Virus record (IMG/VR): IMGVR_UViG_2534682157_000011
Span: 1 to 8,008 of that record
Length of the DNA: 8,008 nt
Direction: 5' to 3' (one strand)
Source of the DNA: a virus
Lineage: Duplodnaviria; Heunggongvirae; Uroviricota; Caudoviricetes
Part shown: piece after piece, positions 5,884 to 8,008 of the stretch
Position numbering within the stretch: position 1 is the first letter of the stretch
How the letters are laid out: each line of letters opens with the position of its first letter
Made by a program: the position numbers and the translations under genes
The notes under the pieces: model-generated
Told to the model about the DNA's origin: nothing
The model's database searches: none
The model's input: the letters and a program-made list of their open reading frames with translations, nothing else

Positions 5884-6429
5884 ATGGCTACGATCCCAAC
5901 CCTCACTCAACCTGAAATTGCCATCGTTGATGGTCAGGCTGTTACTTCATCCCTGGCTGTTGCCAACTTCTTCTCCAAACGTCATGACGATGTACTGAAA
6001 AAGATCCGCACGCTTGAATGTTCCGCATCATTCACTGCCCGCAATTTTTCGGTGAGTGATTACACCGATTGCACAGGCCGCAAACTACCTTGCTATCAAA
6101 TAACCCGCGACGGCTTTGCGTTTCTTGCTATGGGTTTCACGGGTAAACGTGCTGCCCGGTTCAAAGAGGCATACATCAATGCCTTTAACCAGATGGAGAA
6201 ACAGCTTTCAAAGCCCGCTGTACCGAGCGACGTTGCACATAACGCCAGCGTTCTCTGTTCCTACATTTCATCAATTCATCAGGTCTGGCTGCAGCAGCTT
6301 TATCCTATGTTGGCAAAAGCCGAATCTCCGCTGGCTGTTAGCTTATATGACTATATTAATGATGCTTCGGCGCTGGCCTGCCTCATAAATTTGTCGCTGA
6401 ACCCTTCAGAGGCAAGGGGGCGCAAATGA
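5884..6429 (+). CDS. Rha-family phage regulatory protein (antirepressor-like), copy 3, with a diverged C-terminus
   Basis: Begins MATIPTLTQPEIAIVDGQAVTSSLAVANFFSKRHDDVLKKIR with the same Rha core. After NAFNQMEK the C-terminal ~75 residues differ from copies 1 and 2. SD GAGG 8 nt upstream of ATG 5884. Stop overlaps the next ORF start (ATGA at 6426-6429). Confidence 0.8.
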   Translation: MATIPTLTQPEIAIVDGQAVTSSLAVANFFSKRHDDVLKKIRTLECSASFTARNFSVSDYTDCTGRKLPCYQITRDGFAFLAMGFTGKRAARFKEAYINAFNQMEKQLSKPAVPSDVAHNASVLCSYISSIHQVWLQQLYPMLAKAESPLAVSLYDYINDASALACLINLSLNPSEARGRK

Positions 6430-6650
6430 TCCGGAATATTTTCAAACGTTTTACCAATCAGACTTTCCGTTGTCCTCGTCCGGGTCAGTGGTACACCACG
6501 CCTGCAGGGCATGTTCTACGTGTTAGCCTGGTTGACCGTGAATGTCAGAAGGTGATTTGTGAACCGCTGGGCCGTAATTACCGCGTCAGTATGCCGCTTA
6601 TAGCCTTTCGCTCCGGAAAAAACATGAAGCATCTCGGAGGTGCAGCATGA
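6426..6650 (+). CDS. Small hypothetical protein (74 aa), translationally coupled between rha copy 3 and the O-like gene
   Basis: ATG 6426 overlaps the rha3 stop (ATGA), with SD AGGGGG upstream. Its own stop overlaps the O-like ATG (ATGA at 6647-6650). No recognisable domain. Its first codons (ATGATCCG..GAATATT) are the sequence carried into the junctions of the tandem rha units. Confidence 0.5.
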   Translation: MIRNIFKRFTNQTFRCPRPGQWYTTPAGHVLRVSLVDRECQKVICEPLGRNYRVSMPLIAFRSGKNMKHLGGAA

Positions 6651-7465
6651 GTATGGAGCTGATGGTTAAAGCGATGAAAATTCGAGTGGGTAATCCATTG
6701 CGAAAACTGGTTCTGATCAAGCTGGCTGATAATGCCAGCGATCAGGGTGAGTGCTGGCCCAGCTACCAGCATATTGCTGACCAGTGCGAGATTAGCAAAC
6801 GTTCTGTGATGAATCATATTGCGGCCCTTTGTGAGTCCGGGCTGGTAAAAAAAGTCACCCGGAAAGGTGAAAAAGGTAACTCAAGTAATATCTATCTCCT
6901 TCATCTTGATGGTGCAGGAGATTCACTAGGGAGTAGTGCAAATAATTCACTATCTGGTGCAGCAAATTCACCAGGTAGTGCAGGAGTTGCACCAGGGGGT
7001 AGTGCAGGAGATTCACCCAGAACCAGTCACTCTTTTGAACCAGTCAAAGAACCAGTCAATGAACCAATAGCTGTTGGTGCATCTGCTGATGAGTCTGTGC
7101 GAGTTCGTTCAAACCGACCGGAATACTCTCCGGAGTTTGAGCAGGCATGGCTGGCATATCCCAAACGTACTGGTGGCAATTCAAAATCTGCAGCCTTCAA
7201 AGCCTGGAAAGCCCGTTTGAATGAGGGGGTAAACCCCGAAACCATGCTGGAAGGTGTGAAACGCTACGCGGGCTGGGTATCTGCGATGGGTAACAGCGGC
7301 ACACAATTTGTGAAACAGGCTGTCACGTTCTTTGGTCCGGATCGTCATTTCGAAGAATCCTGGGAAGTTCCTGCGGTATCTGTAGCCGGACGCGAGGACC
7401 CGTACTTCAAAGCCAGTTACGACAACGTGGACTACAGCCAGATCCCGGCAGGATTCAGGGGGTGA
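6647..7465 (+). CDS. Replication initiator, lambda O-like (N-terminal HTH DNA-binding domain, low-complexity linker, conserved C-terminal domain)
   Basis: SD GGAGG 6 nt before ATG 6647. N-terminal region LRKLVLIKLADNASDQGECWPSYQHIADQCEISKRSVMNHIAALCESGLVKKV resembles replisome-organiser HTH domains. Gly/Ser/Ala-rich linker is encoded by iteron-like repeats. C-terminal region EFEQAWLAYPKRTGGNSKSAAFKAWKARL... is typical of O-like proteins (from memory). Confidence 0.8.
   Translation: MSMELMVKAMKIRVGNPLRKLVLIKLADNASDQGECWPSYQHIADQCEISKRSVMNHIAALCESGLVKKVTRKGEKGNSSNIYLLHLDGAGDSLGSSANNSLSGAANSPGSAGVAPGGSAGDSPRTSHSFEPVKEPVNEPIAVGASADESVRVRSNRPEYSPEFEQAWLAYPKRTGGNSKSAAFKAWKARLNEGVNPETMLEGVKRYAGWVSAMGNSGTQFVKQAVTFFGPDRHFEESWEVPAVSVAGREDPYFKASYDNVDYSQIPAGFRG
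6912..7016. repeat. Five iteron-like ~15-bp repeats at 21-24 bp spacing inside the O-like gene (candidate replication origin)
   Basis: GTGCAGGAGATTCAC (6912-6926), GTGCAAATAATTCAC (6936-6950), GTGCAGCAAATTCAC (6957-6971), GTGCAGGAGTTGCAC (6978-6992), GTGCAGGAGATTCAC (7002-7016). Each has internal dyad symmetry (GTGCA...T[GT]CAC). Followed by four GAACCAGTCA-type repeats (about 7019-7070). Analogous to ori-lambda lying within gene O. Confidence 0.5.
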
Positions 7466-7956
7466 TCATGAGTCTTTTGAATGACGTTCAGAAATTCATT
7501 GAAGCCCATCCGGGGTGTACTTCCGGAGACATTGCGGATGCTTTTGCAGGTTACTCACGGCAGCGCGTTCTGCAGTCAGCAAGCAAGTTACGTCAGAGCG
7601 GGCGTGTGGCTCACCGTTGTGAAGGAGATACACGCAGACATTTCCCGCGCCTGACTGAGAGAGCGCAGGAACCGGAACCACAACCAGTTCGAGAAACCAG
7701 ACCTGTGCGCAATTTCTATGTCGGCACTAACGATCCACGGGTGATTTTGTGCCTGACCCGCCAGGCGGAAGAACTGGAGTCCAGGGGCTTATACCGTCGT
7801 GCTGCAACGGTGTGGATGGCGGCATTCCGTGAAAGCCACTCCCAGCAAGAGCGAAACAATTTTCTGGCGCGTCGTGAGCGGTGCTTACGGAAAAGCAGCA
7901 AGCGCGCTGCATCGGGTGAAGAGTGGTATCTGTCAGGGAATTACGTGGGGGCTTAA
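7462..7956 (+). CDS. Hypothetical protein (162-164 aa) downstream of the O-like gene; possible replication partner, no ATPase motif seen
   Basis: Track ORF starts at GTG 7462 overlapping the O-like stop (GTGA). ATG 7468 with AGGGGG 5 nt upstream is the likelier start (MSLLNDVQKFIEAHPGCTSGDIADAFAGYSRQRV...). No Walker A motif, so not a DnaC-type loader. Size matches the ~164-aa YfdN-type prophage protein (recollection). Confidence 0.7.
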   Translation: MIMSLLNDVQKFIEAHPGCTSGDIADAFAGYSRQRVLQSASKLRQSGRVAHRCEGDTRRHFPRLTERAQEPEPQPVRETRPVRNFYVGTNDPRVILCLTRQAEELESRGLYRRAATVWMAAFRESHSQQERNNFLARRERCLRKSSKRAASGEEWYLSGNYVGA

Positions 7957-8008
7957 TGAGTAATAAATATTGCCAGGCGCTGGTGGAACTGCGGAACAAA
8001 CCAGCCCA

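Follow-up and report, generated by a model that had tools for sequence, protein, structure and literature searches.

Two repeat sets inside an initiator gene

The DNA analyzed here is the 8,008-nucleotide (nt) stretch at positions 1 to 8,008 of IMG/VR virus record IMGVR_UViG_2534682157_000011 (Caudoviricetes), referred to below as the window, which belongs to a lambdoid prophage and represents its early region. A 272-amino-acid (aa) open reading frame (ORF) at 6647-7465, which evidently encodes the replication initiator, contains two adjacent sets of repeats, five 15-bp dyads and a block of 10-bp direct repeats, together corresponding to aa 89-141 of the protein. A preliminary description of this DNA had predicted that the segment is the prophage replication origin, laid out as in phage lambda. 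Here, we compare the gene, its product, and both repeat sets with those of relatives and of known replication systems. The features of the gene are as follows.

6647-7465, plus strand: replication initiator gene (Pfam HTH_36, PHROG 270, AlphaFold2 domain map)
6868-6909: A+T-rich stretch on the left flank, with the gene's lowest G+C content (30% over 40 nt); encodes the winged-helix wing KGNSSNIYLLHLD
6912-6926: iteron 1, GTGCAGGAGATTCAC, a 5-N5-5 dyad
6936-6950: iteron 2, GTGCAAATAATTCAC
6957-6971: iteron 3, GTGCAGCAAATTCAC
6978-6992: iteron 4, GTGCAGGAGTTGCAC, a perfect palindrome
7002-7016: iteron 5, GTGCAGGAGATTCAC, ending 2 bp 5' of the direct-repeat block
7019-7030, plus strand: direct repeat 1, AGAACCAGTCAC, encoding R-T-S-H, in frame +1 with respect to the 10-mer
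7036-7047, plus strand: direct repeat 2, TGAACCAGTCAA, encoding E-P-V-K, 17 nt past repeat 1
7048-7059, plus strand: direct repeat 3, AGAACCAGTCAA, 12 nt past repeat 2
7060-7069, plus strand: degenerate repeat 4, TGAACCAATA; GAACC is retained in most relatives

A Pfam search matched aa 17-67 of the protein to HTH_36 (PF13730; E = 1.8e-11, 44.1 bits against a cut-off of 25) and also returned a weak DnaD_N match, and PHROG 270, "replication initiation protein," was matched with an E value of 4.8e-88. An AlphaFold2 (AF2) model, built with a 24-sequence alignment, placed a winged helix at aa 1-88 (6647-6910), with a predicted local distance difference test score (pLDDT) of 78-91, helices at residues 17-29, 40-47, and 51-64, and a beta-hairpin wing at residues 67-85. 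A linker starts at about aa 89, and aa 91-157 were modeled as disordered (pLDDT below 50) between this domain and a second folded domain, the helical C-terminal one. Foldseek comparison with the PDB gave generic winged-helix matches, including the DnaD N-domain, all with E values above 0.01, and was uninformative on the C-terminal domain; a sequence search of the PDB returned no match and NCBIfam no informative model. The preliminary description had called the protein O-like. Its position and layout justify the label, but the family does not: the protein belongs to HTH_36 and had no match to Phage_rep_O (PF04492) in the Pfam search, whereas lambda O itself matches PF04492 with an E value of 5.7e-36, and BLASTP of the initiator against lambda O found no meaningful similarity.

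The dyad pattern GTGCANNNNNTKCAC (GTGCA-N5-TKCAC) matches five sites, all within 6912-7016 and none elsewhere in the 8,008 bases. With the palindromic site counted on both strands, this amounts to 6 hits against 0.10 expected, a count that none of 200 shuffled sequences reached. Start-to-start spacing is 24, 21, 21, and 24 bp, and Tandem Repeats Finder independently reported an array at 6957-7017 with a period of 24. The dyads encode aa 89-124, which lie in the AF2-disordered linker between the folded domains. The five GTGCA-N5-T[GT]CAC motifs of the preliminary description, their spacing of about two helical turns, and their place in the linker of the initiator were thus all borne out. In single-stranded form, the dyad array folds more stably than shuffled sequence (z of about -2.5), a trivial result of the dyads themselves. 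The A+T-rich composition of 6868-6909 may merely follow the encoded amino acids.

The second set is built on the 10-mer GAACCAGTCA, which occurs in three exact copies at 7020, 7037, and 7049 and nowhere else in the window. A copy at 7061 is degenerate (GAACCAATAG, 7 of 10 bases matching), so that the four repeats originally described come down to three exact ones and one partial one. Tandem Repeats Finder independently detected an array at 7037-7066 with a period of 12 and 94% matches. Copy 1 is read in frame +1 (aGA ACC AGT CAc, encoding R T S H) and copies 2 and 3 are read in frame 0 (GAA CCA GTC, encoding E P V); because the same 10-mer is read in two frames within one gene, the repetition is one of DNA and not of codons. 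When folded as a single strand, the block forms less structure than shuffled sequence does (z of +0.5 and +0.9), which makes a hairpin or RNA-structure role unlikely. Scans for DnaA boxes (TTWTNCACA) and IHF sites (WATCAANNNNTTR) gave chance-level counts, with no site within 6900-7100. A sigma-70 promoter scan of 6300-8008 found none, and hence the direct repeats are no obvious internal promoter.

Conservation and exchange of the repeats in the initiator family

Repeats within a coding region may have arisen for reasons unrelated to replication. Both sets could be the DNA shadow of a Gly/Ser/Ala-rich linker expanded by slippage, without any role in cis. Consistent with this, the window dyads lie at multiples of three and encode the repetitive peptide (G/S)A(G/N)(D/N)S, and dyad copy number varies among near-identical proteins, as slippage predicts. 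The preliminary description had named codon repetition without DNA-level conservation in homologues as one outcome that would speak against an origin. For the comparison, homologues were retrieved independently of the repeats: residues 20-37 of an N-domain alignment were back-translated and used to scan genomes, one for each bacterial species. The resulting test set comprised 80 loci from Pseudomonas, Enterobacter, Marinomonas, Xenorhabdus, Shewanella, Aeromonas, Aliivibrio, Avibacterium, and other genera.

Of the 80 loci, 71 contained a 28-nt core of the direct-repeat block, AGAACCAGTCACTCTTTTGAACCAGTCA, with no more than 5 mismatches. In an anchor-free k-mer test, exact 10-mers of the window gene were common to 85-90% of the loci only at 7022-7051; sharing elsewhere was 2-32% in the N-domain coding region, the region used for retrieval, and about 3% in the C-domain. 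Across these species-level homologues, no other DNA of the gene is as well conserved as the direct-repeat block. The core residues R, T, S, H, S, F, and E each had a single codon in every locus possessing that residue, with the core placed by fuzzy DNA match, whereas at invariant N-domain residues all 4 to 6 synonymous codons were in use and the top codon accounted for 22-63%. Frequent core variants were C/T changes that alter the residue and keep the DNA pattern (ACC/ATC for T/I; CCA/TCA for P/S). The nine loci lacking the core retained the 10-mers at another spacing and in another frame, giving the peptides HPEPVSFEPV, HPEPVTLEPV, and RTSHRTSQLEPV, and in one Shewanella locus both 10-mer copies had changed in concert to GAATCTATCA. 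Since synonymous sites are fixed and the 10-mers are kept through frame shifts, the repeats are conserved as DNA, and codon repetition does not explain them. Pure codon repetition was rejected on these frame-independent, DNA-level grounds.

The same data bear on a second alternative, in which the 10-mer block is kept for its peptide, PRTSHSFEPVxEP, as a linear motif binding a host replication protein, with the DNA conservation a by-product. This peptide is kept in phages of Escherichia, Aeromonas, Vibrio, and Stenotrophomonas, and it falls in a disordered region, where short linear motifs occur. Selection on the peptide would not, however, explain the use of one codon of six for Arg and for Ser, the common T/I and P/S variants that change the residue and spare the DNA pattern, or the several lineages that retain the DNA repeats in a shifted frame and so encode other peptides. 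We consider this alternative decidedly improbable, and we rejected the peptide as the sole explanation on account of the fixed synonymous sites and the frame-shifted copies. It is possible that the block is constrained as DNA and as peptide at once.

When viral contigs were searched at the DNA level for the core, at least 120 further loci were added, and in every one the core lay inside an ORF of the same N-domain family or inside a truncated ORF of this kind. A set of 157 unique loci carried 3 to 5 dyads (up to 7) of the 5-N5-5 form, 21-24 bp apart, with the last dyad always at -17 to -3 from the core, followed by two to four 10-mers with the 17/12 spacing. Dyad spacings of 22 and 23 bp were common; they shift the reading frame and place the dyads out of frame in those lineages. 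The arms are lineage specific (GTGCA/TGCAC, GTGAA/TTCAC, GTGAC/GTCAC, TGCCA/TGGCA, TAGGC/AAGCA, and GGGCA/TGCCC). Among 155 loci, uncorrected for shared ancestry, the arm class tracked residues 51-56, the start of the predicted recognition helix: GTGnn arms went with [KR]R[ST][VA][MIQ]x (117 loci), TGCCr arms with K[ST]AVRx (24 loci), TAGGC arms with RSTVR[KR] (8 loci), and GGGCA arms with RSTVK[SV] (4 loci). One stray locus outside all arm classes was taken as misanchored.

In 63 unique GTGCA-type arrays, variability was 0.137 in the arms, 0.264 in the spacers, and 0.366 in the dyad centers, and third codon positions were the most conserved ones in the arms. To us, this pattern is the signature expected of a dimer touching two major grooves and not of selection on a disordered peptide. 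It also counts against slippage, by which arms would have no reason to vary less than centers, least of all at their third codon positions, or to covary with the recognition helix. Lineages with a 22- or 23-bp spacing encode nonrepetitive peptides, and within the window gene itself the 10-mers occupy two frames. On this evidence, slippage without a role in cis is extremely unlikely to account for the repeats.

The number of dyads differs even among close relatives. Near-identical E. coli initiators of 242, 250, 272, 294, and 302 aa (homologues P0043, P0028, P0016, P0009, and P0001) differ only by having 1, 2, 5, 8, and 9 dyads, the five-dyad form being the commonest. Most of the shortest forms are from short ENA contigs and may reflect assembly collapse.

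Downstream of the repeats, the gene is modular. At least seven unrelated classes of C-terminal domain follow the direct repeats in relatives, and in a Pfam search of these classes one DnaT-like match near the threshold was obtained, in a class other than that of the window, and nothing for the window's own class. The gene directly downstream varies in kind as well among the relatives sampled: it encodes a Phage_lambda_P loader at loci L016 and L007, a DnaB-type helicase at L006 and L098, an IstB/DnaC-like loader at L132 and L002, and a Toprim primase at L004. Vibrio phages D67 (L003) and D96a (L009), both from one seawater-and-oyster Vibrio phage collection with hosts unrecorded, are 99.9% identical onward from the exact 3' edge of the direct repeats. 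The junction (L003 1869 and L009 1926) lies inside the initiator gene, and the approximately 1.6 kb upstream are unrelated. The two phages accordingly have a common backbone and initiator C-domain but different N-domains, that of D96a being 32% identical to the window's. Their dyads differ, being GTGAy-N5-GTCAC with other centers and spacing in D96a, and so do their direct repeats, a 12-nt TCCTAACAsTAy taking the place of GAACCAGTCA. We regard D67 and D96a as a clean natural swap of an N-domain and origin cassette.

In phage Stx2_14040 (L010, "Eru7"), an unrelated N-domain is joined to the window's type of C-domain. Here, dyads are followed by four 12-nt direct repeats (ACAGAGAATACw) at 1325-1496, and in D96a the dyads and the direct repeats with a 12-nt period lie at 1760-1907, likewise inside the initiator gene. 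The presence of this two-part layout, in which 2-4 direct repeats come right behind the dyads, in two other N-domain families suggests a general design for origins inside initiator genes. The direct repeats are invariant as long as the N-domain family is unchanged, and the comparisons of D67 with D96a and of Stx2_14040 with the window indicate that the second element moves together with the N-domain, independently of the C-domain and the phage backbone.

A module boundary at this position raises a further alternative, that the block is kept as homology for recombinational shuffling of C-domains and has no replication role. It would account for the C-terminal families that start just past the block and for the D67/D96a mosaic junction at exactly its 3' edge. 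The swap partners themselves, however, have unlike direct repeats, so that the block was not the shared homology and moved with the N-domain, and convenience alone supplies no purifying selection that would hold about 30 bp near invariant while the N-domain drifts to about 70% aa identity. A role as a recombination linker is very unlikely in our view, and as the only explanation it was rejected because of the D67/D96a swap.

A candidate replication origin

We consider 6912-7069 the likely origin of theta-type replication in this lambdoid prophage, lying inside the gene for its own initiator as in lambda. The origin that the preliminary description placed within the gene is supported by the DNA-level conservation, the constraint on the dyad arms, their covariation with the recognition helix, and the replication genes found downstream in relatives. 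In the mechanism that we propose, dimers of the N-terminal winged-helix domain would bind the five dyads, with the helix at aa 51-64 reading the 5-bp arms, as covariation and geometry suggest. The phasing of 21-24 bp, about two helical turns, would place all dimers on one face of the DNA in a wrapped complex resembling the "O-some." The direct-repeat block, which begins 2 bp past the last dyad and has a spacing of 17 and then 12, is the candidate site of duplex opening and helicase entry, because it combines a local stability minimum, an unstructured single strand, and the highest conservation in the gene family; it is one of two duplex-stability minima across 148 loci. Initiator binding, melting, and helicase loading are the steps that we infer from these observations.

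The direct repeats would themselves be recognized by the N-domain, either as duplex or as one melted strand. Because their sequence changes only with the N-domain family, and not with the host or the C-domain, the N-domain is the presumptive reader, and such a reading would resemble that of the repeats in the DNA unwinding element (DUE) by RepE, TrfA, RctB, or DnaA. That the N-domain reads the direct repeats besides the dyads is the simplest interpretation, one that we regard as possible and, on balance, a little doubtful. The C-terminal domain would then recruit the helicase machinery, which in relatives may be the lambda P-type loader, DnaB helicase, DnaC-like loader, or primase encoded next door. 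Since no partner gene follows the initiator in the window, host DnaB-DnaC presumably serves here, which is a guess.

The roles of the two repeat sets might instead be reversed, the direct repeats being primary sites for monomers and the dyads serving copy control, autoregulation, or incompatibility through dimers and handcuffing; in a variant, a host factor would occupy the direct repeats. The first 48 residues of the N-domain are near invariant, as are the direct repeats, and the Rep proteins of iteron plasmids are known to occupy direct repeats in monomeric form but inverted repeats in dimeric form (PMC10797057). Against this, the dyads resemble the lambda iterons in number, phasing, and position, and the variable helix residues track the dyad arms, not the direct repeats. 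The host-factor variant is further at odds with the different direct repeats of D67 and D96a, which have the same backbone and come from the same collection (hosts unrecorded), with the chance level of DnaA-box and IHF matches, and with the lack of any promoter-like site in the region. We think such a reversal improbable.

In phage lambda, the O N-domain binds iterons inside gene O, and the O C-domain binds P. The annotated lambda origin consists of four 18-bp dyads with 20-24 bp spacing, encoding aa 117-145 of O, and a subsequent 40-nt tract of 22.5% G+C. The proposed origin is similar to it in that dyads inside the initiator gene encode the interdomain linker, at a spacing of about two helical turns (20-24 bp in lambda, 21-24 bp in the window's family), and in that the dyads are directly adjoined 3', on the same strand, by a second element whose top strand is A-rich. 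In both systems, the N-domain and origin form one unit, and an exchangeable C-domain is matched to the helicase partner. The systems differ in the initiator family (HTH_36, without significant similarity to lambda O, instead of Phage_rep_O), in the dyads (five of 15 bp in the 5-N5-5 form versus four of 18 bp), and in the absence of a P-like gene downstream in the window, whereas relatives with other C-domains do have Phage_lambda_P. The preliminary description saw the second repeat set as an unusual replacement for an A+T-rich unwinding region. The set does occupy the place of the lambda tract and is a local stability minimum; what appears unusual about it is not the replacement but its near-invariance across the whole family.

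Iterons inside a lambdoid initiator gene are an accepted arrangement, known from gene 18 of P22 and gene 18 of phage L (PMC8022706). As in those phages, the origin repeats of the window lie in initiator coding sequence, and each initiator type has its own repeat sequence, but the protein families and repeats are others; for phage L, one set of 11-bp direct repeats is described and no family-wide invariant second element is reported (PMC8022706). Repeats within unwinding elements are likewise common, examples being the 13-mers of E. coli oriC and RK2 oriV, the (G/A)ATCA repeats of V. cholerae ori2, and the DnaA-trios, and the initiators DnaA, RctB, TrfA, and RepE read DUE repeats sequence-specifically as single strands (PMC10797057). 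Like these, the window's direct repeats are short, have a period of 12-13 nt, adjoin the initiator's proposed duplex sites, are unstructured as a single strand, and are specific in sequence beyond mere A+T-richness. They differ in lying inside an ORF and in their moderate A+T content, and single-strand binding is in their case a prediction. The dyads resemble the initiator sites of iteron-type theta origins in general in that their arms covary with the residues predicted to read the DNA. DnaA and IHF sites, which many plasmid origins contain but which are not universal, were not found above chance, and none lies in 6900-7100.

Several points weigh against the proposed origin and its mechanism. 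The literature that we searched contained no binding, melting, or replication assay for this initiator family. The direct-repeat region (7019-7066) has 41.7% G+C, that is, about 58% A+T, compared with 77.5% A+T in the lambda tract, and an equally unstable stretch, the second family-wide minimum, lies to the left of the dyads at -150 to -120 from the direct repeats. The covariation between helix and arms was not corrected for shared ancestry, and placing the core by fuzzy DNA match introduced some bias into the codon test, from which the k-mer test is free. Finally, no helicase loader gene adjoins the initiator in the window, where the downstream gene is PerC/ANR-like, and none is annotated up to Q in the closest phage, Stx2a_1447.

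A more specific version would make the origin bipartite, with two codes for one winged-helix domain: fast-evolving dyads would set replicon specificity and keep coresident prophages from cross-firing, while an invariant face of the domain would read the near-frozen GAAYCAGTCA for DNA opening, probably on the melted strand in a "loop-back" arrangement. We offer this version as a speculation that may well be wrong. If it is true, the cis element overrides the protein code and dictates the peptide PRTSHSFEPV in a disordered linker despite frame changes, and the N-domain, dyads, and DUE form a portable cassette fitting any helicase-recruiting C-domain.

An origin inside an initiator gene is of a well-known kind; new here are the frozen, frame-independent direct repeats tied to the N-domain family and the portability of the cassette. 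In the literature searched, no report of an origin in this initiator family came to light, although subscription literature could hold an earlier description, and when full texts were searched for the repeat sequences and the peptide, unrelated primer matches were the only result. The family also offers a natural series of matched pairs of initiator helix and iteron arm for specificity studies. A cis element overlapping a coding region in several frames is, in addition, a warning for the annotation of such genes and for analyses of selection based on nonsynonymous-to-synonymous substitution ratios (dN/dS).

Prophage context and distribution

The remaining features of the window are listed below; the small RNAs (sRNAs) and antisense RNAs were identified with Rfam.

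1981-2673, minus strand: cI-like repressor gene
2771-3031: cro-like gene
3024-3575: cII-like gene
Between the cII-like gene and the ORF at 6426-6650: three Rha/Ash antirepressor-type genes in tandem
3931-4007, 4791-4867, and 5639-5715: isrK-type sRNAs, above the gathering score
4032-4119, 4892-4979, and 5739-5826: C4 antisense RNAs, above the gathering score
6426-6650: small ORF of 74 aa, PHROG 1153, function unassigned, with a 4-nt overlap with the initiator start
7462-7956: PerC/ANR-like regulator gene, 164 aa

The prophage is of the SfV/mEp460/Stx2a_1447 type and "Eru6"-like. Positions 6400-8008 are 99.8% identical to the Shiga toxin 2 (Stx2)-converting phage Stx2a_1447 and 98% identical to mEp460, and the initiator protein is about 98% identical to its SfV counterpart. 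The window matches the Eru6-like layout in having Rha-type genes and an HTH_36 protein beside cI, and Stx2a_1447, the best match, is classified as species Sawaravirus WGPS2, a name that agrees with that of the Eru6 reference phage Stx2a_WGPS2. From cII to Q of the Stx2a_1447 record, the 272-aa protein is the sole annotated replication-type gene; likewise, the stretch from cI to orf44 of the SfV record has this one only. No origin is annotated in either of these two records.

The origin segment, searched for with 6880-7080, was detected in 922 (17%) of the 5,426 complete E. coli genomes, in up to 4 copies per genome. These copies are almost always chromosomal, and the gene is annotated only as "helix-turn-helix domain-containing protein." Matches in a plasmid database were mostly phage-like episomes of 33-45 kb or misbinned chromosomes, with no defined mini-replicon among them. 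Overall, the initiator family comprises more than 5,000 protein clusters across the Gammaproteobacteria. Shiga toxin gene dosage after induction is driven by phage DNA replication. To our knowledge, Stx phages with non-lambda ("Eru") replication modules have not had these modules characterized, and the segment provides a concrete, testable origin candidate for one of the commonest of them. The Eru types of replication region were defined by gene content (PMC8044961, PMC8951638); neither paper contains an origin or iteron analysis, and the word "iteron" occurs in neither (PMC8044961, PMC8951638).

An Rfam scan of 6400-8008 returned no family, the Rfam matches being those of the isrK and C4 cassettes upstream. 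There, positions 3718-6429 hold three tandem cassettes of about 850 nt, each with an isrK-type sRNA, a C4 antisense RNA, and a Rha/Ash antirepressor-type ORF. Stx2a_1447, the closest phage, has one antirepressor gene where the window has three cassettes, which indicates that this module, resembling P1 immI and Gifsy isrK, was triplicated in the window.

A small hypothetical ORF of similar size to that at 6426-6650 lies just 5' of the initiator in relatives from Salmonella and Stenotrophomonas, where it is recognized by size and position alone. A small ORF also precedes the Stx2_14040 initiator, with its unrelated N-domain, and an upstream small ORF is not universal in the family. On the other side of the initiator, the gene at 7462-7956 occupies the position of lambda P, its start overlapping the initiator stop codon (GTGA). 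The C-terminal half of its product is PerC/ANR-like (Pfam PerC, E = 2.2e-9; NCBIfam ANR_neg_reg, below cut-off), and the N-terminal half may be a winged helix.

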